A stretch of DNA of 64,000 nucleotides from Paraspadella gotoi (GCA_051294375.1 CM119268.1:14529396-14593395); one strand, 5' to 3'; counted from the first letter of the stretch, positions 30,645 to 52,000 are shown. A program made the numbers and translations. Notes: generated by a model not told the origin, from the sequence alone.

Positions 30645-31018
30645 ATTTCTGCTAAATATGTCAAATATCTATCTATATCTATTTGGGATTTACACAAAAT
30701 ACTAAAATTCAGGTATTCAGTTCAAAAGCACGATCTATTGTTAGCAACTTGTCACCTAATTAAGTTTTAACTGCCTACAGAAATATACAACTTTAAAAAG
30801 CATATGAAAATACATATATTTTCGAAACAATTGAGTTCAACCAAAATGGCGACCTAATCAAAACATTGTAGAGACGGTCTTAAATATGACTCATATTTAT
30901 AGGGGAACTTCTTTGTATCAACGAACTCTCAAAATTTTCAAAAGTTTATTTACAAAGTTTAGCAAATAAATTAGGTTTTTCTTGTCTTTAAAACGTTTTG
31001 TCTTTTCAACTTCCTAAT

Positions 31019-32127
31019 TTATTCATCGCAACATTCATTTTTCTGAGAATCAAATAATTCCATCGCAAACTTGAGTTTATCAGTCACGTGAGTAAAAAGG
31101 TGATGCTTAATTTTAATTCCCCATGGAGTAAAAAATTTGCAATGTGCACATTCAAATATTCGACCAAGCGGACTTCGATGACAAGTATTCATTTTCTTTA
31201 GCGTTAACGAACGATTGCCAACCAACGCGCGAGTTACTTGAGATTTTTCGTAATCTATCGTAGATGGGGCGTCCATTTCGTGTGATTCAAAGTTAGTCAA
31301 ATCCTGAGCACCTTTGTTATTCGTGGATGCGCGATGACGCACTAATTTTTTCGGTCGATGTTTAGCTTGATGATTAAGAAAACGTATTCTGTGGTTACTT
31401 TCGTAGTCACAAAAATTACATTTGTGAATAATGTTTGAATGGGTGTATCGGTGTGACATCAGCTTACATTTTGTGTTGGTAGAAAAATCGCAAGTTTCAC
31501 AAAAATATTTTGGTTCTGTTGCATGGGAATCTTTGTGCATTTGCAAGGTATAAGAAGTTTTAGAAACGTAATTACAAATTGTACAAGAAAAGTCTCTCGC
31601 CGCTTTCTTACGCCGTAGTAATTCAATTCTCTCAATTTTTTCTTTTTCATATTCTGATTTATGCATTCTCATCTTGTGCCGATTCAACCAGGGTTTGATT
31701 TTGGCTACATAATGGCAATATTCGCACTTGTAAGTTTTGTTAGAATGCGTCCAGGTTTTATGTTGATACATACGAATATGGTTCATTGCCGTGTAACCAC
31801 AAATGTCGCACTGTCAATACAAAAATAAAAATTTGTAATAATGAATTAATATGGAGTATCACTCATGCTACAATACAAAACTACTCCATCGTTTCTTACC
31901 ACGTAAGTTTGATTGTCATGCCAATACTTAATGTGCCTCCGTAATAAATAACTTCGGTGGGAGGAGAATTCACATTTTTCACACTTAAAAGGTTTTTCAA
32001 TTTGGTTCCTTGGACTAATTGATTGTTCCTCAGACATCACCGATGGAGGACACTGTGTTTTAAACACATTTATTTCGTCAGTCTTGTCATTTTCCAAGTT
32101 GACAGATTTCCTTTCGCTATTTTCCAT
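31019..32127 (-). CDS. C2H2 zinc-finger protein (about 339 aa, 2 exons)
   Basis: Exon 32127-31900 (MENSERK...FKCEKCEFSSHRSYLLRRHIKYWH..YV) splices in phase 0 to 31810-31019 (CDICGYTAMNHIRMYQHKTWTH...). Several CxxC-x12-HxxxH fingers. Confidence 0.88.
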
Positions 32128-32468
32128 TTTGCTACAAAAAAAATAAAAATAGAAAATGGTGAAACAAGCAATTTTCAAATTTTCATAGAAATTTCATAGT
32201 AGTAACATGATTACTAAAACTTGATAAATGAAATGCTTTTTGAACATGCAGAACTAGTTGTAAGAATAAAATCATAAACATAAAAGTTTGAAAACAAAAA
32301 AATTTTGAAAAACTGAACTGCATGTTATAAATTTGAATAAAATAGAAAAAAAAATCAGACAAAAAAAACAAAGCATAATTCTAGTACTAAACCTGGCAAA
32401 AAATACTAGTTTATGACAGTTTTATTACAATATTACAGTTTAAGGATAAAATCAAGAAAACTTTTTAA

Positions 32469-33607
32469 TTATGAGTTTTGTAATTCCGTTTTCACATTTT
32501 TATAGTCGAACAGTTTTAGCTCAAACTTGAGCTTGTCGGCCACGTGGGATAAAAGATGATGCTTGATGCTAATTCCCCAAGGAGTAAAAAATTTGCATGT
32601 GTCACATTCAAAAATGCGTCCTAATGGACTAAAATGGAGTTCATTATTAACAATGGGGTCAGTCCGAGAAACTTGGTCCATATGTAAACTTGGTGAATTT
32701 TTAAATTCTTCTGAGGACAAAATTGTTCATCAATAACCGAGTTGTCCTTTAAAGTGAATAGTAAGGCATTGGGATCTTTTTGGTGGTTTTCCTTTAATTG
32801 ACATATTTTTAGATGCTTCTTAAAATCTAATTTGCTAGTTGCCACAAATTGACACTTTTCACATATGATGAACTTGCGATGTCTTGTACGTTTATGATCA
32901 CGAAAATAACTTGTATTTTTTGTTTTATAATCGCATTCGTGACACTCGTAGATTTTATCCGAATGAACGAATTTATGCTTATAAAGTTTGGCTTGTGTAT
33001 TCGTAGTGAAATAACAAAGCTGGCAAAAGTATTTCGCGTTTGTACTGTGGCTATCTCGGTGGCGTTTGAGCGATTGATGGAGTTTCGTGGTAAAGTCACA
33101 TTCTGGACAGCTCAATATTTCGTTATTAGGCGATTTCTTTTTAAACTGAATTTTTTCCTTGATGATTCCGTGATTCCTCCGTTCGTGTCTGGTCACGTAT
33201 TGCTGACGAAGAGCCGAGTAATTACAAACGCTGCACTTGAAGGTTCGAGTGGAATGCCTTAAATATTTGTGTTGATAAAGACGAATTCGATTTATTCCCG
33301 TGTAGCCACAAATATCACACTGCAAATATAAAAGTAATATAATATTAAAAACCGATTTATTTATAAATTAAAATGTTAGGAAGCTTTCAATCTCTAATTA
33401 CAAATTTGGATAAAAGAAATTGCTTACCATGTGCGTTATTTTGTCATGCCAATATTTGACGTGAGCATTCATCAAGTCCTTTCGGGCCGATGAGAAATTA
33501 CATTGTGAACATTTAAACAAGTTTTCCTCTTTAATTTCTTCTTTATTCATCGAAATTTCAAAGTTTTCAGTTCCCATATTAGTTATTTCTACTGGAGTTT
33601 GGTCCAT
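32469..33607 (-). CDS. C2H2 zinc-finger protein, tandem paralog (2 exons; one probable sequencing frameshift near 32720)
   Basis: Exon 33607-33428 (MDQTPV...FKCSQCNFSSARKDLMNAHVKYWH..HM) plus 33319-32469 (CDICGYTGINRIRLYQHKYLRH...). The duplicate copy reads through the frameshift position (VIDEHLSSEEF). Shares the C-terminal SPLGRIFECxxCKFFTPWGI finger with its neighbour. Confidence 0.82.
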
Positions 33608-34123
33608 TTTAGCATAGAAATTGCATTACGACTGCGTCGGAGGATAATTTTGAAATATATAGATTTAGAGAGAGCCACAAAAATTATGTATCAAAAAGAG
33701 AGATGTAATATATTTTTGGATTTTTTTTTTACTCGAGTACCAGAGAAAGGTGCGAATTAAATTTTTAAACAAAACAGTCTTTTTAGTTGAATTGTCTCCA
33801 TATCTGTTTATCCTGAGAAGTTTTATTGTGAGACAAAATTGGAGTTGGGTTTCCGCACTTTTAACTCTTGAACCAGCTGACTCGAACTGAATTCGTGAGG
33901 ATGAAAAGCTAAAACAGAGTGCTCACTTTTGTCGTCAGAGGCGCGAGGCGTTGCAGAGAAAAACAAAATACGAGAATACTGAATTCAATTTCAATTGGAA
34001 ATATAATTAAAATTTTAACTATATTAACGTTCAAATTGTTTATTTTTAGCATAAAAAAGTTTCGATAATAAAAAGTTAATACAAAATGAATCCGCCTAAT
34101 ATTTATTATTCATATACTGATAA

Positions 34124-34360
<237 letters not shown>

Positions 34361-34842
34361 TGATATCATAAGAAGTTGAAAATGTATATATGGCTTCTAA
34401 TCATCAAGATCTTTAAAATCAATATTCGTATTTATGTTTTATTTACAAAACAGCTTCTCTCTCTCTCTTTTAATTATATGTCGCTCTCTCTCCCTCTCTT
34501 TTTCTCTGCAGCGGCTGTCCAGCGGCTGTCCAGCGGCTGTCCAGCTTCTCTCTCTCTCTCTTTTAATTATATGTCGCTCTTTCTCTCTCTTTTTTTCTTC
34601 TGAATAGGGGTAGCCCTCTCAATGGGGTGAGTCAAAAATTTAGAAGAGAACATGCTCAAACGAAAATTTATACATTTTTAAGTATACTTTCAATGTAAAA
34701 AAAATTCTTAAATGGCTCTATACCCAAGTATTTATTTTTAATATTTATTTTATAGAAAGGAAAAGAGTTCGACCCTATTCAGATTCGTCGAAAAACGAGT
34801 TCAGCTATGCAGCGGCGATCCAGCGGCTGTCCGGATAACCGA

Positions 34843-35738
34843 TGGTCTTTTCATACAATTGAAACATTCTTTGAAATATTTTCCACTTCATTGATAGGGA
34901 AGCAGGTACTCTGGGAGTGAATAAACGAGTCTGTGAAAGAGTCTTGATTGAAAGCTTGCAGGGACCTGCTATGTCATTATCTTGTAAGAGTGATGGAGGC
35001 CTTAAACCACCAAAGCCTGTCCAAAGTCAGGGGCAAATAGCTTATTTATTAAATGAATGGATAATTTTTATATTGGTTGTACCAATTTCATAAAATTCAG
35101 CTCCTTGTATTTTGATGCTAGTGCGGAGTACAATAAGTATTCCCGATCTAATATTTAAGGGAGTGGTCTTTTCATACAATTGAAACATTCTTTGAAATAT
35201 TTTCCACTTCATTGATAGGGAAGCCAGGTACTCTGGGAGTGAATAAACGAGTCTGTGAAAGAGTCTTGATTGAAAGCTTGCAGGGACCTGCTATGTCATT
35301 ATCTTGTAAGAGTGATGGAGGCCTTAAACCACCAAAGCCTGTCCAAAGTCAGGGGCAAGATAGCTTATTTATTAAATGAATGGATAATTTTTATATTGGT
35401 TGTACCAATTTCATAAAATTCAGCTCCTTGTATTTTGATGCTAGTGCGGAGTACAATAAGTATTCCCCGATCTAATATTTAAGGGAGTGGTCTTTTCATA
35501 CAATTGAAACATTCTTTGAAATATTTTCCACTTCATTGATAGGAAGCCAGGTACTCTGGGAATGAATAAACGAGTCTGTGAAAGAGTCTTGATTGAAAGC
35601 TTGCAGGGACCTGCTATGTCATTATCTTGTAAGAGTGAGGAGGCCTAAACCACCAAAGCCTGTCCAAAGTCAGGGGCAAGATAGCTTATTTATTAAATGA
35701 ATGGATAATTTTTATATTGGTTGTACCAATTTCATAAA
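34843..35738. repeat. Tandem repeat, about 322-bp unit x 2.8
   Basis: Units start at 34843, 35164 and 35488 (TGGTCTTTTCATACAATTG...). The array is absent from the duplicate copy near 46080. Confidence 0.9.
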
Positions 35739-35836
35739 CGGGGGTGACCTAATAACGAGTCTCGTTGGCGGGAAAACTGTCCAGTATGGCAACAGCCAGG
35801 TTGCCTGTGATGCCCATTGGGATGGGGCATCTCACT

Positions 35837-35917
35837 GTTGGCTTTGGGGGCTTCCGACCCTCAGTGACGCATCCAGTCACTGGCGCGGTTACCCTAGGAC
35901 GGTCTCGCTTTGCCAAC
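35837..35917 (-). ncRNA. Twister ribozyme (type P5 permutation) in the 3' LTR of element B
   Basis: GTTGGC-AAA-GCGA-GA-CCG-TCCTAGGG-TAA-CCGC-GC-CAGTGAC-TGGATGC-GTCACTG-AGGG-TCGGAAGC-CCCC-AAA-GCCAAC. The core is complete: UAA, GA, UNNNAAGC loop and both pseudoknots. Confidence 0.82.
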
Positions 35918-36234
35918 GCAGAGGGAAGTCGTTAGGACTGTGGATGGAACACTACGCCTGGGATGGTGTGTTCCCCCTCTGAGCCAATGGATTTGGCTGA
36001 CGGATGGTGGACGTGAGGCGGTGTGAATATACCGCCACAGGATCCCCGGGCCAAGACATCACTCAGGTTCCTCAAGCCTGAGAGGTGTCTGACAAGACTG
36101 TTACCATAGTGGGAGAGAGAGAGCGCGAGTTGTGGGGGCATAGGCGTTTGTCGTAGCGTACCCCAGGGGCATAGGCGTTTGTCGTAGCGTACCCGAAGTC
36201 GGCAGGGCATAGGCGTTTGTCGTAGCGTACCCTG

Positions 36235-36270
36235 AGAAGGTTGCGTGTTCGAATCACGTCGGGCTCACCA
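36235..36270 (-). promoter_or_regulatory. Extended primer-binding site complementary to the tRNA-Trp 3' half
   Basis: The + strand reads AGAAGGTTGCGTGTTCGAATCACGTCGGGCTCACCA, matching the variable loop, T-arm, acceptor strand and CCA of eukaryotic tRNA-Trp(CCA). It lies 2 nt from the 5' LTR end. Confidence 0.85.
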
Positions 36271-36324
36271 CTTATGGCAACAGCCAGGTTGCCTGTGATG
36301 CCCATTGGGATGGGGCATCTCACT

Positions 36325-36404
36325 GTTGGCTTTGGGGCTTCCGACCCTCAGTGACGCATCCAGTCACTGGCGCGGTTACCCTAGGACGGTCTCGCTTTGC
36401 CAAC
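36325..36404 (-). ncRNA. Twister ribozyme (type P5 permutation) in the 5' LTR of element B
   Basis: Identical to 35837-35917 except for one C after P4. Predicted U^A cleavage between 36378 and 36377. Confidence 0.82.
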
Positions 36405-37253
36405 GCAGAGGGAAGTCGTTAGGACTGTGGATGGAACACTACGCCTGGGACTGAAGAATATATTCCATTCTCGAACTTGTGAGTGTTCCCCCTCTTGAGG
36501 CTCAACTGGATTGGCCTCGACGAGATGGTGGACGTGAGGCGGTGTTAATATACCGCCACACCAGCTTCTTTCTCTCTCTCTCTCTCTCTTTCTTTCTCTC
36601 TCTCTCACTCATACTCGGATTTGTTTGTTTTATTTACGTTGAACGATTCATCGTGTCAATGAATGACTATCATCGCATCAATGAATGATTCTCATCATAT
36701 CAATGAATGACTATCATCGTATCAATCATTTGGTTATCATCGCATCAATCATTTGGTTATCATCCCATCAATTCATCAATCATCGCGTCAATTTTTTATC
36801 TTTTTTTATTTCTTTATTTCCTTCTCTCGTCAGGCGAGATCCTGTTCTTTTAAGATTTTTTTTTATTGTTCGGTGAGCTCATAAGAGAAAATTTTCTGAG
36901 CTTGAAATCGTACTGTTGTAAAACAGGCACAGAATAAGTGAGTCATGAATCCGTTTTTGTACTTAACTGTTATTTAAAACTTTTTTCCTTAGTTGAGTAT
37001 CTATAGCGGAGACTACAATCTTTTACTATTTTCTTCTCGATTTAATGTTCACCGAAGTTCGCAAAAATTTAATGTAAAGATACACTAGGAAAATAACAAA
37101 TAATTTATTTGAATTAGGTTATATTCAGTTATCCTTAACAATGAATCGAGAAAAATGGTGATTAAAATAATTTTAATTTTGAATTATTAAAATCGGCGAA
37201 AAGGAAAAAAAATAAAAAAGCTTTCATGGAACTTCATTCGGTATTGAGTCCCG

Positions 37254-38392
37254 TCACCGCCAGACGAAGGGGGCGATCATCCCGGCGATGGCAACGAGCA
37301 TGGACAGCGTCGAAAAGACCTGAATAAAAACAAAAGAACAGTCGTAGTTAAAGTTTAACTTAAACTTAACTTAAATTTCGGTGAAATCATGAATCTCAAA
37401 AAAAAAAAGAACGGTGATTCCAATGTGTTGCGCCGCAGTGACTTTATTTTCACATGAACTAGCATGACAGAGCATGACTAAAAAAACTTTTTTAGCCCTT
37501 GACTGAGGTTTTTTCCTGTCTTAACAAATGAACAATCAACTATAAGCGAATTATATGTATTTTTAATGTAAGTAGGACAGATCGAACGACAGGCCGACGG
37601 AAAGGTGACTTATAGAGTTGCTAAAAACCTAAAAAAAATCCCTATCTCGAAACTCACGCAAGCGGCGATGAAATGGTAGCAAAGAGGGAAAAACATCTCG
37701 TTTGTGCAGATGGGAAAATCTGCTTCCCCTTGCAAGACGAAGACGATGCAGACCAATGCGGACAACAGCATCAGCGCGATCAGGAGGAACAACTGCAATG
37801 GAATTATGTTGAATGGAATTTGGTTGCTTTTTGAACCATACAGTTTTAAGATAGATATTAGAGACTTATTATTCGCTGGCATTTCGTTTTCATTTACAGG
37901 ACAAAAGGAAATATGACGGATGGCGAGATAGTAGACGTAATTACGTATATGTATCAAATGTTACTCGTTGTTGCGCTTTTGGTCGGGCCTTTCTTACCAC
38001 GAAGGCTTTCCGAACAAACTTTTCCAACTGGATGCAAGAGATGACGAGGATTCCAAAGGCGATAAAAATCGTCATCATCGTCATGATTTCGTAGACGATC
38101 CACTTGACCGGCCGACCCGGGATCCCGACCTGCTGGTAATGCTCGAAGAGGCCGACGGCGGTGATGTTGAAGACCTGAAGTACAGAGAGCAGGCGAGAAA
38201 GTTATTTGGGAGAGGATGTAATTAAAGAGACTACATATGAAAGTGAAAAAAGTGGATAGTTCAAAGTTGGCGGGAGCTCACTTTGGCAGTTTCAATAAGA
38301 TGAATAAATCGAATCGATTGACCCAGACCAAAAATACTCACGATTATGATTAGGGCGAAAATGCCGATGAGACTTAACCTAACGGTGATCAT
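37254..38392 (-). CDS. Small four-TM membrane protein, paralog 5 (142 aa, 4 exons)
   Basis: Exons 38392-38342 (MITVRLSLIGIFALIII), 38174-37998 (VFNITAVGLFEHY...VYEIMTMMTIFIAFGILVISCIQLEKFVRKAFV), 37792-37658 (LFLLIALMLLSALVCIVFVLQG...HFIAAC), 37319-37254 (VFSTLSMLVAIAGMIAPFVWR*). Confidence 0.87.
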
Positions 38393-39594
38393 TTTGAAAG
38401 TTTGTCGATTAAAATCGATTAAAAAAAATATTGAGACGACAAAATGAAAGTTTTTTTTTTTTTTGTGTTTCCGAATCGGGTCTCCAAGAAAACTGCAGAT
38501 TGGATTTGTTAAAAAAAACCGTTGGGGATTTATAAGAATCCTCTTTTTTCTCGGGATTACTTGGTTTCCGGTCGCAGTGAATCAGTTCCGCTTTTACAGA
38601 CGTATCGAGTCAAAACGGGTATTAATTTTGTTTTGTCGAAACTTATTCGTATGTACGTAAGAATTGCTAGTAGACTGCGTGAGACTTAATTTACTTACTA
38701 TAAATCAATAACGGATATTGGATTCCGCAAACGAAAACGCTGCTTTTTGTAAGGCTTTGAAAAAGAAACCATCTTTCTTCTCTTATCTGTTTCGAGAATA
38801 ATCTGAGGTGGAAAGTTCCGTTTCCAGTCACCCTTTGCAATTTTGAACCAATCGTTGCCTCTGAGAGACTTCAATTCTGGCATTTTCCCCTACACTTACG
38901 CCCGCTCGCATTTATTGAGAATGTCTATTTTGTAATTTGTGAAGTATGCAGGACTGAATAAAAAAAGACATTTCTTTCAAAAAAGAAATTTTAATAGTCT
39001 TAAAATTTAATTTAAAAACAATTTAAAATTGATAATTAAATTTAAAAAATTAATGTAACTCGAAAGAATAGGATTTTTCTTTTCACGAAATAATTTTCAG
39101 ATTTTAAAATCAATTAAAAACAGACGCAACTTTGAAAACTAAAGATATTCTAATATGATGTTTAATTGTAAAATTATGTTTTAAGTCTCAATTTTTTATG
39201 GTTTTGTTTAATTTTCTCCAGATTATCTGTTACGTACCGCTATCACCAAAAATTTTCAAAAATAAACTGTGTAACAAGACAGAAATAAAGCTAATTATAT
39301 TCAATAACTCGGATGAACTCTTAATTGCACATTAATCTAATGAATTTTTTTTTTTCGAACGATAAATCTTGAACAAACGAAAGAAAAAAGAATTAAGAGG
39401 GCAAATTCTTTGGCATGACTAAATACTCAGAGCTTCGAATAAAAAAATGTTCACAGATTGAACGCAGGGAACGTTGGGCGCGGTCGAGGGGCAACTTGCC
39501 CGTCGCACACAAAAAACAAACATCGGGCACGATATCCTCGCACGGCCGAGCACCCCGTTCCCGAACGAGTACAAAAGGAACGTCAATTTCAAAA

Positions 39595-40751
39595 TCAGGT
39601 GGTCGGGCAAGAGCCAAGGTTGACGTCCCCGAACGGTTCGCCACCCCTGAGTGGCTGCGTTCGATTCTCGAAACGGAAGTCGCGGATGCAGCCGACGAAG
39701 GGTTCCGTGGCGCGAAGGGCGGCGAAGGTCGCCCCCTCGGGCACGCCTCCGACGTAGAACGGATCGTTAGTGTCCGTCGAAGAAATGCCCGCCTAGATAA
39801 AACCAAGTTTAGAGAAAGTTAATGAACGAATTGACAAAACAGAATTGTAATTGGCAAGGCTTCAACAGTCCTTCATTGCAACAACTTACCTTTCCGATGC
39901 CCGGAGTCTGGAAATCGTCGTCGACCGTGAGAGTCACAACGTTTTTAGCTTTCACCGCCTTTTGAGAATTGAAGAAAAAGAATAAGGGCATTGAGAATTA
40001 ATTAAGTCAAAACATAAACAAGACAAACACACATTGAAGAGACGAGAAGGATCGTATCCTCACCATGATCTCGTGCCAGTTTCCGTCGCACAAGTAGTTC
40101 TTGGCTTCGGGTTCGTATTTGGTGAGGATCTCCCCGGCTCCGTTGTTGGCGCTGAAGATCAGATTGCCGTCCTGCATCTGCAGCATGAGGTAGTCGTCCT
40201 TGCGCGCGGATTGGATGGCGACGATGGCGCCGTCCATCGTGCGAGGTTTCATGGCGAATTTGATGATCAGGTCGAGTCCCACGCGGAAGTTGTCGACTAG
40301 GTTGTGAAAGAGTGAAAAATTGAATATAAGTTTGTATTCTTACCTATATTTACTACTTTTTCATAAACAACTTTGCTTTCGTACAGAGTTTGATGTATCC
40401 TCCATCGATGCCAAAGAAAGTCCCGTCCTCCGATTCGGCGGAGCATAGGCTGGTCCCCACCTCGACGGGCGCTTCCCGAGACTCGAACCGACTGTTCTTT
40501 TGTTTAAAGTCGCGCATACATCCGATGAAACCAGAGGAGACGCTCTGCAGCGAAAATTTTTTTTTTTTTTAAAGCCAAAGAAAAGGCCAATTGCATGGGA
40601 CTACGAAGTAAAGTTTCACACTAAGTTTTGTAATTTATAACAAAAAAGAAAACTTACGTCCACGTTCCTCATAAACTTCTTTCTGTATTTTCCTTCTTTA
40701 ACTTCAGGCGCGATGCCGCCAAGGTAGAAAGGAGGTTTGATGTTCATCGAC
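39595..40751 (-). CDS. LAMA3/5: Laminin alpha terminal exons (end of LG4 and LG5), intact copy
   Basis: Exons 40751-40658, 40544-40385, 40296-40064, 39958-39890 and 39792-39595, ending PFYVGGVP...FVGCIRDF...VNLGSCPTT*. The frame is open. Confidence 0.88.
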
Positions 40752-41049
40752 CTAAAAATATAATGAGATTATTAAAATTATAAAGTGATAATCCAATACG
40801 TTAGCTCGGTCGCTCTTAAAGCCGGGTAAGTATTGAATAGAAACGATGAAAAATGGCTCAAATAATTTCAGGAGAATTATCATTATTTCGGGATTCAAGG
40901 CTAAAGAAAGATTTCAGTCAATTTTCGTTTACCAACGAAATATTTTTTATCCAAACGTCAATTCATCAAAACAGGGCAAAAATCTATCAATTTGCATCAA
41001 AAAAAGGGAGAGAGAGAATCAAAAATGTACGCGCTGGGTGGTTGGAGAG

Positions 41050-41651
41050 TAAGGCGTAGTAAAACTTCTAAATTTAACTTTAATAAAAATTTTAAAAGTG
41101 AGGAACGAACAACATTATACTAATGAACATTTATGTATAAAAAAATTATAATAAATTTTACAATTTACGCAGTAGGCCATATTTATCTTAGTACTAATCC
41201 AATAAATGTTAAAATTTCAAACAGTTTTTCTAAGATTTTTTTGCAGATTTGGATTTGTCATAAAAAGTTGATAAAAAAATATAACTATTTTTAAAAAATT
41301 CCTTCATTAAGTGGGTCAAAAATTAGAAAAAGCTATATTTTAAGCTGAAATTAACTTTTTATATATTAAATATAGTTTTTGTAATTTTTAACCCACTTAA
41401 TGGAAGAATTTTTAAAAATAATTTATATTTTCTTTATCACTTTTGACGAGGAATTCAAATCTGCAATCAAAATTAAGAAAAGCCCATTTTGAAATTTTTC
41501 AATTTTATAAGGATAATACTATATATAAATATAGCCTACTGCGAAAATTAAAAAACATAAATTAATTTTTTTTACAAATTAATGTTCACTGATGGTATGT
41601 TGTTCATAATTGACCTTTAGAATTTTCGTACGTAACTTTCACTACGCCTTA
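41050..41651. mobile_element. Foldback MITE (about 600 bp, near-complete imperfect palindrome) with 8-bp TSD
   Basis: Termini TAAGGCGTAGT / ACTACGCCTTA; TSD TTGGAGAG at 41042-41049 and 41652-41659; arms pair inward to about 41350. An 8-bp TSD is compatible with hAT-type transposases. Confidence 0.85.
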
Positions 41652-42379
41652 TTGGAGAGTCCACAATGCGGACTGGGGTATCATTCAACGCAAACTACTT
41701 TTCAATATAAAGAGAAATATATCAAAACGGAAATTGCTACCATGGCAGATGGGTCTTGCTTATAATCGATAAATATGGCTGACTCTAAAATAATTTTATA
41801 TTTGTGTTGGATAAAAAATATGTTGAATAATATCCGCTTTTAAATGTAGCGACGGTATGACGAGGAATGGGAGATAGAATGAATTGTTTTTCTGTGCAAG
41901 TTGTTTAAACTTTCGATAAAGCAGTACATTTTTAAAACCGAGGAACTTCACGCAATTTCAGGAGCCACGTGGTGGAAAAAACAAACGTGGTTCACTCTAA
42001 CGGCAGTTACCTGTCCTTTCCAGAGGCACTACGTTTTTTTTGTCAAAGGAAAGGAAAATATAAAACCGAGATTAGGTCTACAAGCTAATTTGACACCAGA
42101 AACAAAATAAAACGTTACACGCAACCAAAACCAGTAAAGTTCATGATTTTTTTTATTTTCATTCTTGATAATTTTTTTTTTTTTGCATGATGGTTGCCGC
42201 TAACGATCCTTTTCATTTCTGCAATATTATAATATAATAACGAGTTAATCTTTCTACGGAAAGATTAAAAGTTTTTTTTTTTCGTTCCGAGATGCGAGTT
42301 TTTTTCGTAGTGGCGAAACAATAACAATAACTGTCGCCCACGAAAACTCGAGAAAGATTTATTAACACGGAACTTCGTT

Positions 42380-44885
42380 ATTCCATCGCAAACTTGAGTT
42401 TATCAGTCACGTGAGTAAAAAGGTGATGCTTAATTTTAATTCCCATGGAGTAAAAAATTTGCAATGTGCACATTCAAATATTCGACAAGCGGACTTCGAT
42501 GACAAGTATTCATTTTCTTTAGCGTTAACGAACGATTGCCAACCAACGCGCCAGTTACTTGAGATTTTTCGTAATCTATCGTAGATGGGGCGTCCATTTC
42601 GTGTGATTCAAAGTAGTCAAATCCTGAGCACTTTGTTATTCGTGATGCGCGATGACGCACTAATTTTTTCGGTCGATGTTTAGCTTGATGATTAAGAAAA
42701 CGTATTCTGTGGTTACTTTCGTAGTCACAAAAATTACATTTGTGAATAATGTTTGAATGGGTGTATCGGTGTGACATCAGCTTACATTTTGTGTTGGTAG
42801 AAAAAATCGCAAGTTTCACAAAAATATTTTGGTTCTGTTGCATGGAATCTTTGTGCATTTGCAAGGTATAAGAAGTTTTAGAAACGTAATTACAAATTGT
42901 ACAAGAAAAGTCTCTCGCCGCTTTCTTACGCGTAGTAATTCAATTCTCTCAATTTTTTTTTTTCATATTCTGATTTATGCATTCTCATCTTGTGCCGATT
43001 CAACCAGGTTTGATTTGGCTACATAATGGCAATATCGCACTTGTAAGTTTTTAGAATGCGTCCAGGTTTTATGTTGATACATACGAATATGGTTCATTGC
43101 CGTGTACCACAAATGTCGCCTGTCAATACAAAAATAAAAATTTGTAATAATGAATTAATATGGAGTATCACTCATGCTACAATACAAAACTACTCCATCG
43201 TTTTACCACGTAAGTTTGATTGTCATGCCAATACTTAATGTGCCTCCGTAATAAATAACTTCGGTGGGAGGAGAATTCACATTTTTCACACTTAAAAGTT
43301 TTTCAATTTGGTTCCTGGACTAATTGATTGTTCCTCAGACATCACGATGGAGGACACTGTGTTTTCAACACATTTATTTCGTCAGTCTTGTCATTTTCCA
43401 AGTTGACAGATTTCCTTTCGCTATTTTCCATTTTGCTACAAAAAAAATAAAAATAGAAAATGGTGAAACAAGCAATTTTCAAATTTTCATAGAAATTTCA
43501 TAGTAGTAACATGATACTAAAACTTGATAAATGAAATGCTTTTTGAACATGCAGAACTAGTTGTAAGAATAAAATCATAAACAAAAGTTTGAAAACAAAA
43601 AAATTTTGAAAAACTGAACTGCATGTTATAAATTTGAATAAAAAAGAAAAAAAAATTCAGACAAAAAAACAAGCATAATTCTAGTACTAAACCTGGCAAA
43701 AAATACTAGTTTATGACAGTTTATTACAATATTACAGTTTAAGGATAAAATCAAGAAACTTTTTAATTATGAGTTTTGTAATTCGTTTTCACATTTTATA
43801 GTCGAACAGTTTTAGCTCAACTTGAGCTTGTCGCCACGTGGGATAAAAGATGATGCTTGATGCTAATTCCCCAAGGAGTAAAAAATTTGCAGTGTGCACA
43901 TTCAAAATGCGTCCTAATGGACTAAAATGGAGTTCATTATAACAATGGGGTCAGTCCGAGAAACTTGGTCATATGTAAACTTGGTGAATTTTTAAATTCT
44001 TCTGAGGACAAATGTTCATCAATAACCGAGTTGTCCTTTAAAGTGAATAGTAAGGCATTGGGATCTTTTTGGTGGTTTTCCTTTAATTGACATATTTTTA
44101 GATGCTTCTTAAAATCTAATTTGCTAGTTGCCACAAATTGACACTTTTACATATGATGAACTTGCGATGTCTTGTACGTTTTATGATCAGAAAATAACTT
44201 GTATTTTTTGTTTTATAATCGCATTCGTGACACTCGTAGATTTTATCGAATGAACGAATTTATGCTTATAAAGTTTGGCTTGTGTATTCGTAGTGAAATA
44301 ACAAAGCTGGCAAAGTATTTCGCGTTTGTACTGTGGCTATCTCGGTGGCGTTTGAGCGATTGATGGAGTTTCGTGGTAAAGTCACATTCTGGACAGCTCA
44401 ATATTTCGTTATTAGGCGATTTCTTTTTAAACTGAATTTTTTCCTTGATGATTCCGTGATTCTCCGTTCGTGTCTGGTCAACGTATTGCTGACGAAGAGC
44501 CGATAATTACAAACGCTGCACTTGAAGGTTCGAGTGGAATGCTTAAATATTTGTGTTGATAAAGACGAATTCGATTTATTCCCGTGTAGCCACAAATATC
44601 ACACTGCAAATATAAAAGTAATATAATATTAAAAACCGATTTATTTATAAATTAAAATGTTAGGAAGCTTTCAATCTCTAATTACAAATTTGGATAAAGA
44701 AATTGCTTACCATGTGCGTTATTTTGTCATGCAATATTTGACGTGAGCATTCATCAGTCCTTTCGGGCGATGAGAAATTACATTGTGAACATTTAAACAA
44801 GTTTTCCTCTTTAATTTCTTCTTTATTCATCGAAATTTCAAAGTTTTCAGTTCCATATTAGTTATTTCTACTGAGTTTGGTCCAT
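42380..44885 (-). pseudogene. Frameshifted second copy of the two C2H2 zinc-finger genes
   Basis: Colinear with 31057-33607, with scattered 1-bp deletions; truncated at the duplication boundary. Confidence 0.7.
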
Positions 44886-46768
44886 TTTTAGCATAGAAAT
44901 TGCATTACGACTGCGTCGGAGGATAATTTTGAAATATATAGATTTAGAGAGAGCCACAAAAATTATGTATCAAAAAGAGAGATGTAATATTTTTTGGATT
45001 TTTTTTTACTCGAGTACAGAGAAAGGTGCGAATTAAATTTTTAAACAAAACGGTCTTTTAGTTGAATTGTCTCCATATCTGTTTATCCTGAGAAGTTTTA
45101 TTGTGAGACAAAATTGGAGTTGGGTTTCCGCACTTTTAACTCTTGAACCAGCTGACTCGAACTGATTCGTGAGGATGAAAAGCTAAAGCAGAGTGCTCAC
45201 TTTTGTCGTCAGAGCGCGAGGCGTTGCAGAGAAAACAAAATACGAGAATACTGAATTCAATTTCAATTGGAAATATAATTAAAATTTTAACTATATTAAA
45301 CGTTCAAATTGTTTATTTTTAGCATAAAAAAGTTTCGATAATAAAAAGTTAATACAAAATGAATCCGCCTAATATTATTATTCATATACTGATAAGGTTA
45401 CGGCAACCGGCTCTTTGTCGGATTCCGCAAAGGTCTTCTGCATTTTCTACGCTGGAATCGGCGTTCCATTGACGCTGATAATGTTCACCGTTTGGTGGAG
45501 CGATAATGATTCCAACTTCTCTCTTATTGCTAAAAATCACATTATCCGGCTTGCAGTCTTACGTTGCGTCGTCGTCGTCGTCGTCGTCGGCGTTATGCTT
45601 TTTTGCAATCATTTCTATTGAAAGTGTGATATCATAAGAAGTTGAAAATGTATATATGGCTTCTAATCATCAAGATCTTTAAAATCAATATTCGTATTTA
45701 TGTTTTATTTACAAAACAGCTTCTCTCTCTCTCTTTAATTATATGTCGCTCTCTCTCCCTCTCTTTTCTCTGCAGCGGCTGTCCAGCTTCTCTCTCTCTC
45801 TCTTTTATTATATGTCGCTCTTTCTCTCTCTTTTTTCTTCTGAATAGGGGTAGCCCTCTCAATGGGGTGAGTCAAAAATTTAGAAAGAGAACATGCTCAA
45901 ACGAAAATTTATACATTTTTAAGTATACTTTCATGTAAAAAAATTCTTAACGGCTCTATACCAAGTATTTATTTTTTAATATTTATTTATAGAAAGGAAA
46001 AGAGTTCGACCCTATTCAGATTCGTCGAAAAACGAGTTCAGCTATGCAGCGGCGGTCCAGCGGCTGTCCGGATAACCGATATAAACGGGTGACTAATACG
46101 AGTCTTCGTTTGGCGGAACTGTCCAGCTTCTTTCTCTCTCTCTTCCTCTATTTCTTTCTCTCTCTCCTCGATACTCGATTGTTTGTTCTTATTTACGTTG
46201 ACGATTCTCGTGTCATGAATGCTATCATCGTAAGAATGATCTATCAATCAAGAATGACTATCTCGTCTCAATCATGGTTATCACGCATCATCTTTGGTTA
46301 TCATCATCAATATCAATCTCGCGTCATTTTTTATCTTTTTTTATTTCTTTATTTCTTCTCTCGTCGGCGAGATCCTGTTCTTTTAGATTTTTTCTTATTG
46401 TTCGGTGAGCTCATAAGAGAAAATTTTCTGAGCTTGAAATCGTACTGTAGTAAACAGGCACAGAATAAGTGAGTCATGAATCGTTTTTGTACTTAACTGT
46501 TATTTAAAACTTTTTCCTTAGTTTGAGTTATCTATAGCGGAGACTACAATCTTTTACTATTTTTACTCGATTTATGTTCACCGAAGTTCGCAAAAATTTA
46601 ATGTAAAGATACACTAGGAAAATAAAAAATAATTTATTTGAATTAGGTTATTCAGTTATCCTTAAATGAATCGAGAAAAATGTGATTAAATATTTTATTT
46701 TGAATTATTAAAATCGGCGAAAAGGAAAAAATAAAAAACTTTCATGAACTTCATTCGTATTGAGTCCG

Positions 46769-47849
46769 TCACCGCCAGACGAAGGGGCGATCATCCCGGC
46801 GATGGCAACGAGCATGGACAGCGTCGAAAGACCTGAATAAAACAAAAGAACAGTCGTAGTTAAGATTAACTTAACTTAACTTAAATTTCGTGAAATATGA
46901 ATCTCAAAAAAAAGAACGGTGATTCCAATGTGTTGCGCCGCAGTGACTATTTTCACATGAACTAGCATGACAGAGCATGACTAAAAAAACTTTTTTAGCC
47001 TTGATGAGGTTTTTTCCTGTCTTAAATGAACATAACTATAGGAATTATATGTTTTTAATGTAAGTAGGACAGATCGAACGACAGGCCGACGGAAAGGTGA
47101 CTTATAGAGTTGCTAAAAACCTAAAAAAAATCCATATCGAAACTCACGCAAGCGGCGATGAAATGGTAGCAAAGAGGGAAAAACATTGTTGTGCAGATGG
47201 GAAATCTGTTCCCTTGCAAGACGAAGACGATGCAGACCAATGCGGACACAGCATCAGCGCGATCAGAGGAACAACTGCAATGGAATTATTGAATGGAATT
47301 TGGTTGCTTTTGAACCATACAGTTTTAAGATAGATATTAGAGACTTATATTCGCTGGCATTTGTTTTCATTTACAGGACAAAAGGAAATATGACGGAGGC
47401 GAGATAGTAGACGTAATTACTGTATATGTATCAAATGTTACTCGTTGTTGCGCTTTTGGTCGGGCCTTTCTTACCACGAAGGCTTTCCGAACAAACTTTT
47501 CCAACTGGATGCAAGAGTACGAGGATTCCAAAGGCGATAAAAATCGTCATCATCGTCATGATTTCGTAGACGATCACTTGACCGGCGACCCGGGATCCGA
47601 CTGCTGGTAATGCTCGAAGAGGCGACGGCGGTGATTGAAGACCTGAAGTCAGAGCAGCGAGAAGTTATTTGGGAGCATGTAATTAAAAGAGACTACATAT
47701 GAAAGTGAAAAAGGGATAGTTCAAAGTTGGCGGGAGCTCACTTTGCAGTTTTCAATAAGATGAATAAATCGAATCGATTGACCAGACCAAAATACTCACG
47801 ATTATGATTAGGGCGAAAATGCCGATGAGACTTAACTAACGGTGATCAT
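46769..47849 (-). pseudogene. Frameshifted second copy of four-TM paralog 5 (probably sequencing errors in the duplicated segment)
   Basis: Colinear with 37254-38392 but carries many 1-bp deletions in every exon. Confidence 0.7.
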
Positions 47850-49032
47850 TTTCAAAGTCTGTCGATTAAATCGATTAAAAAAATATTGAGACGACAAAAT
47901 GAATTTTTTTTTTTTTTGGTGTTTCCGAATCGGTCTCCAAGAAAACTGCAGATTGGATTTGTTAAAAAAAACCGTTGGGATTTATAAGAATCCTCTTTTT
48001 CTCGGGATTACTTGGTTTCCGGTCGCAGTGAATCAGTTCCGCTTTTACAGACGTATCGAGTCAAAACGGGTATTAATTTTGTTTTGTCGAAACTTATTCG
48101 TATGTACGTAAGAATTCTAGTAGACTGCGTGAGACTTAATTTACTTATATAAATCAATAACGGATATTGGATTCCGCAAACGAAAACGCTGCTTTTTGTA
48201 AGGCTTTGAAAAAGAAACCATCTTTCTTCTCTTATCTGTTTCGAGAATAATCTGAGGTGGAAAGTTCCGTTTCCAGTCACCCTTTGCAATTTTGAACCAA
48301 TCGTTGCCTCTGAGAGACTTCAATTCTGGCATTTTCCCCTACACTTACGCCGCTCGCATTTATTGAGAATGTCTATTTTGTAATTTGTTGAAGTATGCAG
48401 GACTGAATAAAAAAAGACATTTCTTTCAAAAAAGAAATTTTAATAGTCTTAAAATTTAATTAAAAACAATTTAAAATTGATAATTAAATTTAAAAAATTA
48501 ATGTAATCGAAGAATAGGATTTTCTTTTCACGAAATAATTTTTAGATTTTAAAATCAATTAAAAACAGACGCAACTTTGAAACTAAAGATTTTCTAATAT
48601 GATGTTTAATTGTAAAATTATGTTTTAAGTCTCAATTTTTATGGTTTTGTTTAATTTTCTCCAGATTATCTGTTACGTACCGCTATCACCAAAAATTTTC
48701 AAAAATAAACTGTGTAACAAGACAGAAATAAAGCTAATTATATTCAATAACTCGGATGAACTCTTAATTGCACATTAATCTAATGAATTTTTTTTTTCGA
48801 ACGATAAATCTTGAACCAACGAAAGAAAAAGAATTAAGAGGGCAAATTCTTTGGCATGACTAAATACTCAGAGCTTCGAATAAAAAAATGTTCACAGATT
48901 GAACGCAGGGAACGTTGGGCGCGGTCGAGGGGCAACTTGCCGTCGCACACAAAAAACAAACATCGGACGATATCCTCGCACGGCCGAGCACCCCGTTCCC
49001 GAACGAGTACAAAAGGAACGTCAATTTCAAAA

Positions 49033-52000
49033 TCAGGTGGTCGGGCAAAGCCAAGGTTGACGTCCCCGAACGGTTCCGCCACCTAAGTGGCTGCGTTCGA
49101 TTCTCGAAACGAGAGTCGCGGATGCAGCCGACGAAGGGTTCCGTGGCGCGAAGGGCGGCGAAGGTCGCCCCTCGGGCACGCCTCCGAGTAGAACGGATCG
49201 TTAGTGTCCGTCGAAGAAATGCCCGCCTAGATAAACCAAGTTTAGAGAAAGTTAATGAAAGAATTGACAAAACAGAATTGTAATTGGCAAGGCTTCAACA
49301 GTCTTTCATTGCAACAACTTACCTTTCCGATGCCGGAGTCTGGAAATCGTCGTCGACCGTGAGAGTCACAACGTTTTTAGCTTTCACCGCCTTTTGAGAA
49401 TTGAAGAAAAAGAATAAGGGCATTGAGAATTAATTAAGTCAAAACATAAACAAGACAAACACACATTGAAGAGACGAGAAGGATCGTATCCTCACCATGA
49501 TCTCGTGCCAGTTTCCGTCGCACAAGTAGTTCTTGGCTTCGGGTTCGTATTTGGTGAGGATCTCCCCGGCTCCGTTGTTGGCGCTGAAGATCAGATTGCG
49601 TCCTGCATCTGCAGCATGAGGTAGTCGTCCTTGCGCGCGGATTGGATGGCGACGATGGCGCCGTCCATCGTGCGAGGTTTCATGGCGAATTTGATGATCA
49701 GGTCGAGTCCACGCGGAAGTTGTCGACTAGGTTGTGAAAGAGTGAAAAATTAAAATTGTATTATTACTATATTTACTATTTTATTCATTAAACACTTTGC
49801 TTTCGTACAGAGTTTGATGTATCCTCCATCGATGCCAAAGAAAGTCCCGTCCTCCGATTCGGCGGAGCATAGGCTGGTCCCCACCTCGACGGGGGCTTCC
49901 CGAGACTCGAACCGACTGTTCTTTTGTTTAAAGTCGCGCATACATCCGATGAAACCAGAGGAGACGCTCTGCAGCGAAAAAAAAAAAAAAAAAAATTTTC
50001 AAGGCAAAGAAAAGGCCATTTGCATGGGACTAGAAGTAAAGTTTAACAATAAGTTTTGTAATTTATAACAAAGAAGAAAACTTACGTCCACGTTCCTCAT
50101 GAACTTCTTTCTGTATTTTCCTTCTTTAACTTCAGGCGCGATGCCGCCAAGGTAGAAAGGAGGTTTGATGTTCATCGACCTAAAAATATAATGAGATTAT
50201 TAAAATTATAAAGTGATAATCCAATACGTTAGCTCGGTCGCTCTTAAAGCCGGGTAAGTATTGAATAGAACGATGAAAAATGGCTCAAATAATTTCAGGA
50301 GAATTATCATTATTTCGGGATTCAAGGCTAAAGAAAGATTTCAGTCAATTTTCGTCTTACCAACGAAATATTTTTTATCCAAACGTCAATTCATCAAAAC
50401 AGGGCAAAAATCTATCAATTTGCATCAAAAAAAGGGAGAGAGAGAATCAAAAATGTACGCGCTGGGTGGTTGGAGAGTAAGGCGTAGTAAAACTTCTAAA
50501 TTTAACTTTAATAAAAATTTTAAAAGTGAGGAACGAACAACATTATACTAATGAACATTTATGTATAAAAAAATTATAATAAATTTTACAATTTACGCAG
50601 TAGGCCATATTTATCTTAGTACTAATCCAATAAATGTTAAAATTTCAAACAGTTTTTTCTAAGATTTTTTTGCAGATTTGGATTTGTCATAAAAAGTTGA
50701 TAAAAGAAATATAACTATTTTTAAAAAAATTCCTTCATTAAGTGGGTCAAAAATTAGAAAAAGCTATATTTTAAGCTGAAATTAACTTTTATATATTAAA
50801 TATAGTTTTTGTAATTTTTAACCCACTTAATGGAAGAATTTTTAAAAATAATTTATATTTTCTTTTATCACTTTTGACGAGGAATTCAAATCTGCAATCA
50901 AAATTAAGAAAAGCCCATTTTGAAATTTTTCAATTTTATAAGGATAATACTATATATAAATATAGCCTACTGCGAAAATTAAAAAACATAAATTAATTTT
51001 TTTTACAAATTAATGTTCACTGATGTATGTTGTTCATAATTGACCTTTAGAATTTTCGTACGTAACTTTCACTACGCCTTATTGGAGAGTCCCAATGCGG
51101 ACTGGGGTATCATTCAACGCAAACTATTTTCAATATAAAGAGAAATATATCAAAACGGAAATTGCTACCATGGCAGATGGTCTTGCTTATAATCGATAAT
51201 ATGGCTGACTCTAAAATAATTTTATATTTGTGTTGGATAAAAAATATGTTGAATAATATCCGCTTTTAAATGTAGCGACGGTATGACGAGGAATGGGAGA
51301 TAGAATGAATTGTTTTTCTGTGCAAGTTGTTTAAACTTTCGATAAAGCAGTACATTTTTAAAACCGAGGAACTTCACGCAATTTCAGGAGCCACGTGGTG
51401 AAAAAACAAACGTGGTTCACTCTAACGGCAGTTACCTTGTCCTTTCAGAGGCACTACGTTTTTTTGTCAAAGGAAAGGAAATATAAAACGAGATTAGGTC
51501 TACAAGCTAATTTGACACCAGAAACAAAATAAAACGTTACACCAACCAAAACCGGTAAAGTTCATTATTTTTTATTTTCATTCTGATATATTTTTTTTTT
51601 GCATGATGTTGCCGCTAACGATCCTTTTCATTTCTGCAATATTATAATATAATAACGAGTTAATCTTCCTACGGAAGATTAAAAGTATATTTTTTTTTCG
51701 TTCCGAGATGCGAGTTTTTTTCGTAGTGGCGAACAATAACAAAACTGTCGCCCACGAAAACTCGAGAAAGATTTATGTTCAATTGTTTGTGCGCGTGCTT
51801 TTTTTTCGCAAGGGCGCGATGCTACTGTTCACAGTTTAGTAGGGAATGTTGATTGGTTAGTGAATTGGCAGTCTTGGGGGGGGGAGGGAGAGGAGCGGTC
51901 TTGGTGAGGGGGGAGCGGTTTGATATCGGGGGCGAGGGGGCTTGCGGTTGGGTTCTTAGNNNNNNNNNNNNNNNNNNNNNNNNNACGAGCTACTTACGTG

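Follow-up and report, generated by a model that had tools for sequence, protein, structure and literature searches.

Can an animal element with long terminal repeats (LTRs) that codes for no protein be organised around self-cleaving RNA in the way that the LTR retrozymes of plants are, and if so, does the ribozyme have to be a hammerhead? This question is raised by a stretch of 64,000 nucleotides from Paraspadella gotoi (GCA_051294375.1 CM119268.1:14529396-14593395; the whole stretch is called the window here, and positions are counted from its first letter), for which a preliminary description made from the sequence alone had proposed a mini-element with a twister ribozyme in each LTR. We consider it probable, although by no means certain, that this element, here called element B, is a non-coding animal LTR retrozyme in which the twisters of the LTRs cleave their own transcript, the released 487-nt RNA is circularised and a gypsy-type helper copies it; we infer the self-cleavage, the circle and the helper from the organisation of the element and from comparison with a diverged sister, element A, in the same window. 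Element B lies on the minus strand, which the preliminary description had not named, and its parts and target site are as follows.

36560-35785, minus strand: element B, 776 nt in total, GC content 57%
36560-36273, minus strand: 5' LTR, 288 nt, with TG...TA ends
36272-36040, minus strand: internal part, 233 nt
36039-35785, minus strand: 3' LTR, 255 nt, with TG...TA ends
36235-36270, minus strand: primer-binding site (PBS) for tRNA-Trp, the first 18 nt of which match the tRNA end
36136-36232, minus strand: three head-to-tail copies of a unit of about 28 nt, whose 12-nt end is kept once in element A
36043-36047, minus strand: short tract of 5 purines, a candidate polypurine tract (PPT) separated from the 3' LTR by 3 nt; element A has kept this junction
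36561-36564: target-site duplication (TSD), 5' side of element B, 4 bases matching 35781-35784
35781-35784: TSD, 3' side of element B, 4 bases
46123-46126: empty insertion site with a single copy of the TSD bases, in duplicated flanks

The flanks of element B recur without the element at about 46080-46430, where the TSD 4-mer is present once, and this single 4-mer at 46123-46126 identifies the repeat flanking element B as a true target-site duplication. Since the empty site lies in a duplicate of the flanks, the insertion is either younger than the duplication or a difference between haplotypes; judged from its sequence, element B is a recent insertion. The two LTRs are identical at 178 of 179 positions in their downstream part and at 73 of 110 in their upstream part. 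Neither element B nor element A codes for protein, the longest ATG-led frame being 92 amino acids, and element B thus combines the features known from plant LTR retrozymes, namely two LTRs, a PBS, a short PPT, a 4-bp TSD and the lack of coding capacity. The 776-bp non-coding element with two LTRs, PBS and 4-bp TSD that had been described is therefore confirmed, the empty site being an addition, while the G-rich tract ascribed to it does precede the 3' LTR but consists of only 5 purines (36047-36043).

In 110 aligned columns, the upstream part of the 5' LTR (36451-36560) differs from the 3' LTR by 34 gaps and by mismatches at three positions, and it includes an extra piece of about 30 nt. Within it, 36468-36523 has zero contig cover in all four of four sequencing runs, and is either a private change of this copy, despite the recent-looking insertion, or an assembly error.

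Each LTR contains the parts of a twister ribozyme, which are listed here in full for the 3' LTR.

36325-36404, minus strand: twister motif in the P5 permutation, 5' LTR, predicted cut 36378^36377
35837-35917, minus strand: twister motif in the P5 permutation, 3' LTR, predicted cut 35891^35890
36377-35891, minus strand: predicted unit-length RNA between the cuts, 487 nt, without terminal repeat
35917-35912 / 35842-35837, minus strand: P5, 6 bp
35908-35905 / 35888-35885, minus strand: P2, 3 bp and a C-A mismatch
35904-35903, minus strand: catalytic GA
35902-35900 / 35856-35854, minus strand: pseudoknot T1, 3 bp
35899-35892, minus strand: P1, a self-complementary 8-mer
35891-35889, minus strand: UAA around the cut
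35884-35883 / 35851-35850, minus strand: pseudoknot T2, GC/GC
35882-35876 / 35868-35862, minus strand: P3, 7 bp
35860-35858 / 35849-35847, minus strand: P4, 3 bp

On mapping base by base, the two ribozyme motifs of element B were found to be identical, with the catalytic G, the cut-site A, T1 and T2 intact, and at the level of sequence T1 and T2 are complementary in both LTRs of element B as well as in the 3' LTR of element A. All the twister parts named in the preliminary description are thus present in both LTRs, and its cut positions, 36378 and 35891 with 487 nt between them, agree with the coordinates of the predicted cuts; for P2, the three base pairs stood, but the C-A mismatch beside the active site had been omitted. 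The core parts and the P5-permuted order correspond to published descriptions of twister (PMC5408937, PMC8501958; here and below, comparisons refer to the available passages of the sources cited), the order P5-P2'-GA-T1-P1-UAA-P2-GC-P3-P4-L4-P4'-P5', both pseudoknots and the catalytic G and A being shared with type P5 (PMC5408937, PMC8501958, PMC11662667). Unlike type P5, the motif leaves the Rfam twister-P5 model silent, is closest in part to twister-P1 and has a loopless 8-mer for P1. This 8-mer is loopless and self-complementary in both families, with different sequences; alone it would form 2 bp as a hairpin, while with a second copy it is predicted to form a duplex of about -11 kcal/mol in either family. 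P1 has been reported to be dispensable (PMC5408937, PMC11662667), and when natural twisters were tested at scale, defects of P1, P2 and P4 were tolerated, as was an A-to-C change at the twister A-A pair, the change seen in the loop of family A, while pseudoknots and catalytic residues were sensitive (PMC11662667).

Element A allows the motif to be compared between two families, since its LTR ends and the start of its PBS are those of element B.

21357-22091, plus strand: element A, sister family, 735 nt
21357-21593 and 21817-22091, plus strand: LTRs of element A
21353-21356 and 22092-22095: 4-bp TSD of element A
21940-22020, plus strand: twister motif in element A's 3' LTR, showing compensatory changes against element B

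On alignment, the LTRs of the two elements are identical in 185 of 303 columns (about 60%). Both copies of the core in element A are damaged in the window, the 5' LTR lacking two bases and the 3' LTR having a run of A at the cut; in the contigs, however, the cut site of the 3' LTR has U in 96% of the depth and, in the majority of contigs, one base fewer, so that the family has UAA there, as in the element's own 5' LTR, and the GA is present. P2 has 4 bp and P4 has 3 bp in element A. Seven pairs differ between the families on both sides, and six of them are still paired (one in T1, two in P2, one in P5 and two in P1), the exception being the C-A of element B (rough p 0.03); the middle pair of T1 is swapped. 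The compensatory changes previously claimed for the pseudoknot, P2 and P5 are borne out by these six of seven. Within family A, a minority of contigs show the terminal pair of the P1 8-mer swapped from U-A to A-U (21958 in 42 contigs and 21965 in 13), and the two swapped bases occur together among the loose contig ends at 21968.

Elements A and B also share a block able to form a hairpin, together with a short motif, before the purine tract (36040-36110 and 21730-21816) and a 12-nt motif after the PBS; these internal motifs are candidate packaging or dimerisation signals, proposed on sequence grounds. In the 3' LTR of element A, a local duplication at 22034-22069, downstream of the twister, is absent from the 5' LTR and thinly covered by contigs, and a stop-to-stop frame of 149 codons runs through the element (21549-21998, plus strand), probably incidentally.

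The specificity of the motif was assessed with a descriptor composed by hand after the motif had been seen, which misses the damaged 5' LTR of element A. It matched three times in the window, in both LTRs of element B and in the 3' LTR of element A, and gave no match in any of 40 dinucleotide shuffles or in 123,286 bases of unrelated loci. Amongst 4,227 Rfam families, twister-P1 ranked top in scans of 101 bases, as a partial match, both for the 5' LTR of element B (16.2 bits, E 0.3) and for the 3' LTR of element A (13.6 bits, E 1.6); it ranked third, again in part, for the 3' LTR motif in a 1-kb scan of element B (E 3.1) and was absent from a 1.1-kb scan of element A. It is the unpermuted part of the motif that the model matches. 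An Rfam match to YrlA in the 1-kb scan of element B (E 0.43) reflects the tRNA-like PBS and was set aside. No hammerhead core was detected on either strand of element A or B. Folded as a circle, the predicted 487-nt unit has an energy of -171.3 kcal/mol, which corresponds to z -3.0 relative to 60 shuffles; the ribozyme is blocked in this fold, and only 59% of the circle is paired. The predicted circle of element A would measure about 477 nt.

Further copies were sought in assembled contigs from 6 of 15 sequencing runs, the depth of which is no measure of copy number. The element is present in public contigs of one organism. In run X1, element B was matched by 9,728 contigs and the 3' LTR of element A by 1,408. 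Contigs of B leave the element into unrelated AT-rich flanks at 35784/35785 (27 and 42), at 36039/36040 (106 and 37) and at 36272 (81), and those of family A do so at 21817 (44) and 22092 (23), which indicates that A and B are two dispersed families of many copies; the run-off at 36272 suggests solo LTRs. Among the 40 of 55 variants listed for B in X1, none of the 68 sites of the core varies at 3% or more, against at least 13 of 122 sites in the upstream LTR (Fisher p 0.005); loop L3 holds the two common variants. The quiet core, together with the specificity of the descriptor, the compensation between families and the top rank of twister-P1 in both narrow scans, strengthens the original assignment of the motif to twister. 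No contigs of the element were present in run X14, and joints at which a single contig goes back on the element were not taken as signs of circles or multimers. The contigs in runs of organisms designated B and C and of a biofilm metagenome (2-5 each, mostly at depth below 30) are indistinguishable from contamination, and no host range is claimed for the family.

Upstream of the twister, the LTRs carry sequences resembling the A and B boxes of RNA polymerase III promoters, which the preliminary description had not named.

21397 and 21439, plus strand: perfect A box and B box, 5' LTR of element A
21873 and 21916 (to 21926), plus strand: perfect A box and B box with tRNA spacing, 3' LTR of element A
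35975-35986, minus strand: A box-like motif with one mismatch, 3' LTR of element B (pattern scan)
35942-35950, minus strand: B-box core within a hairpin resembling a T-arm, 3' LTR of element B (pattern scan)
36429-36437, minus strand: B-box-like core within a hairpin resembling a T-arm, 5' LTR of element B (pattern scan)

The scan used the general consensus patterns of the two boxes. Perfect pairs 42-43 nt apart occur only twice on both strands of the 64-kb window, both times in the LTRs of element A, and no variant falls in 35937-35952, around the B box of the 3' LTR of element B, among the 40 of 55 listed. No run of four T is present on the sense strand of element A or B, nor is there an AATAAA inside either. 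The patterns agree with the motifs quoted in PMC10886601, and boxes of this kind in an LTR link the element to Helenus/TRIMp3.

The PBS tells something of how the copy in the window was made. In LTR elements, plus-strand copying of the primer stops at methylated A58. The complementarity of the PBS of element B to tRNA-Trp presumably continues to about 36 nt. At PBS nt 11-18 (36260-36253), most contigs of B, and element A as well, do not have the bases of the window copy. The 18 nt by which the window copy matches the tRNA fit such copying of the primer, a trace that the preliminary description had not noted, and this copy was thus likely born by tRNA-Trp-primed reverse transcription. The match to the tRNA-Trp end extends over 18 of 19 nt and is shared with the PBS of Gypsy-32_NVi (Fig. 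S2, PMC10886601).

How does such an element relate to known systems? Plant LTR retrozymes are non-coding like element B, with a ribozyme in each LTR, a PBS, a purine tract and a 4-bp TSD; their GC content is above 55%, and the RNA unit between the cuts likewise lacks a terminal repeat and has its ribozyme predicted to be blocked (PMC4918200). In contrast, they live in plants, carry a type III hammerhead in place of a twister, use tRNA-Met rather than tRNA-Trp as primer, lack the polymerase III-type boxes in the LTR and have units of 600-1000 nt as against 487 nt; circles have been shown for them and are predicted for element B (PMC4918200). [quoted passage not shown] In most animal Helenus listed there, the boxes lie near the 3' end of the LTR, often before a T run, whereas in element B the boxes are followed by a ribozyme of about 90 nt and a further 50 nt, without a T run, up to the TA end. 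The parallel to plant LTR retrozymes drawn in the preliminary description consequently holds for the layout, but Helenus/TRIMp3, with its A and B boxes, is an equally close relative. Element B would work like an LTR retrozyme while having a twister in the place of the type III hammerhead that characterises that class, and it shows most of the traits of Helenus in another LTR layout.

The guess that the known Helenus elements of Nasonia and zebrafish contain a twister was not supported, as none was seen by eye in the available animal consensus set of PMC10886601. Two gall wasp elements in that set, Helenus-2_SyJa-LTR and Helenus-2_SyUm-LTR (DataS1), carry after the boxes what appears by eye to be a type III hammerhead, with GUC, a 7-bp stem I, CUGAUGA, stem II, GAAAC, stem III and complementary loops; both have a PBS of tRNA-Trp type, and the slot of the hammerhead corresponds, again by eye, to the twister slot of element B (35837-35986). 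No mention of this hammerhead was found in the available main text of PMC10886601 or in the passages of further literature.

Animal retroelements with ribozymes are known in other forms. Variants of twister in Schistosoma Perere-3 process the RNA of an animal retroelement, as is proposed for element B, but Perere-3 is an autonomous non-LTR element of the RTE type with a single 5' ribozyme in P1-type order and with no LTR, PBS or circle (PMC8501958). The non-LTR retrozymes of animals are non-coding and delimited by ribozymes, like element B (PMC7229834, PMC7761336, bioRxiv 10.64898/2026.07.22.740005), and some have weak ribozymes with palindromic loops that work as dimers (PMC7229834); unlike element B, they carry type I hammerheads in tandem arrays without LTR, PBS or PPT and have longer TSDs and Penelope-like helpers (PMC7229834, PMC7761336, bioRxiv 10.64898/2026.07.22.740005). 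With its LTRs, PBS and 4-bp TSD and no hammerhead core, element B is not of this type. LTR retrozymes have been placed primarily in plants (bioRxiv 10.64898/2026.07.22.740005), and unpublished insect elements with type III hammerheads as well as truncated twisters in RTE elements have been mentioned (PMC7761336). Neither an LTR element with a twister nor a description of an LTR retrozyme from animals was found in the full-text literature available (including PMC6765202, PMC7761336, PMC11722881 and PMC3587641), which covers few subscription journals and no survey supplements; within that coverage, the novelty suggested for a twister-bearing LTR mini-element in animals is upheld.

On the reading that we favour, RNA polymerase III would start at the A and B boxes of the 5' LTR and, because there is no internal terminator, read through both LTRs. 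Both twisters would then cut at U^A (36378^36377 and 35891^35890), perhaps aided by mutual pairing of the P1 8-mers, so that a product of 487 nt that lacks a terminal repeat and ends in a 5'-OH and a cyclic phosphate would be released and ligated into a circle. Reverse transcription of the circle by a gypsy-type enzyme would be primed by host tRNA-Trp, and a gypsy-type integrase would make the 4-bp duplication; the TSD length and the tRNA 3'-end primer indicate a helper of this type. Published work offers precedents, since the RNA of an LTR element that lacks a terminal repeat cannot undergo normal strand transfer, a problem that a circle would solve (PMC4918200), RtcB circularises the monomers of animal retrozymes in vitro, and hammerheads with palindromic loops that depend on dimers are known in amphibian retrozymes (PMC7229834). 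By analogy, the two LTR twisters may activate each other through P1. A wider model, which we put forward only tentatively and hold to be somewhat doubtful, is that animal LTR retrozymes form a group primed by tRNA-Trp and driven by polymerase III, with a fixed slot behind the promoter for unrelated ribozymes, a twister in element B and a type III hammerhead in the gall wasp Helenus-2, and that in element B a palindromic P1 duplex mutually activates the LTR twisters such that only transcripts with two LTRs are cut to unit length and circularised. A guess that the helper belongs to the CsRn1 clade found no support in the literature passages available.

A number of results weigh against the retrozyme reading. 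Twister-P1 scores of 13.6-16.2 bits compare with a gathering score of 67.2, which no Rfam match reached, and the twister-P5 model, by which the motif was to be verified according to the preliminary description, gave no match at E<=10 in the scans of B or A, nor did twister-P3, leaving only the sub-threshold twister-P1. When folded without pseudoknots and without a known twister as control, P3 and P5 form with a probability of at least 0.9, but P2 and P4 with 0.01-0.05 in both families, and in element B an alternative pairing of P1 with P4 is lower by 11 kcal/mol. The C-A mismatch at the base of P2 lies next to the active site, and P1 has no room for a loop and forms no normal hairpin. The covariation comes from one split between families in a register set by hand, and MAFFT shifts P1-L1-P2 and fails to reproduce that register. 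As for variation in B, the figures rest on 40 of 55 variants, beyond the twister, the end of the LTR varies about as little as the core does, and one core variant, in 5'-LTR coordinates, is seen at 36336 (4.6% of a thin depth), where it leaves a G-U pair. The boxes of B are imperfect, with one mismatch in the A box of the 3' LTR and disruption in the 5' LTR, neither ARAGORN nor Rfam called a tRNA at them, and the absence of a T4 run over 776 nt is weak alone. Finally, no helper was found in the window, where 17 of 51 reading frames were scanned, or in the collection scans, and an RNA cut only once could be replicated with no circle involved.

This last point leads to an explanation that we regard as unlikely but still a serious competitor, in which the twister is active as an end-trimmer: one LTR ribozyme would cut per transcript, for example the 3' twister in place of a terminator, leaving the terminal repeat for strand transfer in linear LTR replication. 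The lack of a T4 terminator or AATAAA inside either element would fit such trimming, cutting would be incomplete given the blocked fold that is predicted, and the non-LTR Perere-3 transcripts are trimmed by twisters without a circle (PMC8501958). However, two identical ribozymes whose P1 8-mers are predicted to form a dimer of about -11 kcal/mol would promote cutting in pairs, the fold of the 487-nt unit is better than that of its shuffles (z -3.0), and plant LTR elements of the same layout do make circles (PMC4918200). Still less likely than single cutting, and improbable in our view, is that the motif no longer cleaves and is a twister relic, or a structural signal for packaging or dimerisation, in a Helenus-like TRIM. 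The sub-threshold Rfam scores, the C-A in P2, the loopless P1, the competing fold and the low variation reaching beyond the core could all be accommodated in this way, but the pseudoknots, the catalytic G and U^A have been kept across families that are about 60% alike, with T1 compensated, and the imperfections are of kinds reportedly tolerated (PMC11662667). That hairpins form this pattern by chance, or that the pattern is an artefact of assembly, might be suspected from a window rich in errors, with its damaged copies of A and a 5' LTR stretch without cover, and from a descriptor composed after the motif had been seen; given that this descriptor had no match in 40 shuffles and 123 kb of unrelated DNA, and that twister is the top Rfam match in both families, we consider it extremely improbable, and it is already contradicted by the contig data, in which thousands of independent contigs carry the core.

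Should the retrozyme reading of element B prove right, it would extend two lines of work. Published accounts treat LTR retrozymes as elements mainly of plants that use type III hammerheads, and describe the retrozymes of animals as having neither LTRs nor primer sites nor purine tracts (PMC7229834, PMC7761336, bioRxiv 10.64898/2026.07.22.740005); a circular route into LTR replication would then be a general solution open to different ribozymes, and work on TRIMp3 promoters would be joined with that on retrozymes. Twister, the biological roles of which are largely unassigned (PMC8501958), would gain a second function in retroelements, and its loopless P1 would be a natural test case for dimer-dependent cleavage. 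Because the motif lies below Rfam thresholds, similar elements may have been overlooked in other genomes.

Relatives were also sought in other collections. All 18 loci returned by a metagenome scan for the junction of LTR end and PBS are unrelated chance matches, without LTRs or twister; nine of the 18 represent one fungal-type WD40-repeat gene family. These nine (L001, L002, L004, L007, L008, L009, L011, L016 and L018) are paralogous genes with 129-nt tandem WD40-like repeats. Scans of viral contigs gave no match for the junction, the tRNA-like stretch or the P3-P4 motif, and a scan of prokaryote genomes for relatives gave none.

The surroundings of element B identify the host as an animal by a laminin-G exon and C2H2 zinc-finger exons; the protein-domain scan of the window covered 17 of 51 listed frames.

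58601-59092, minus strand: laminin G domain exon (Pfam E 1e-15)
31019-33367 and 42436-42939, minus strand: C2H2 zinc-finger reading frames, duplicated

A near-identical duplication relates about 31000-42000 to 42400-51400, at offsets of about 9.4 and 11.3 kb and with many single-base indels, and one of its copies carries element B while the other carries the empty site. Its origin may lie in a segmental duplication or in the tandem assembly of two haplotypes. Three head-to-tail units of about 323 bp (34843-35738) end about 45 bases before element B.

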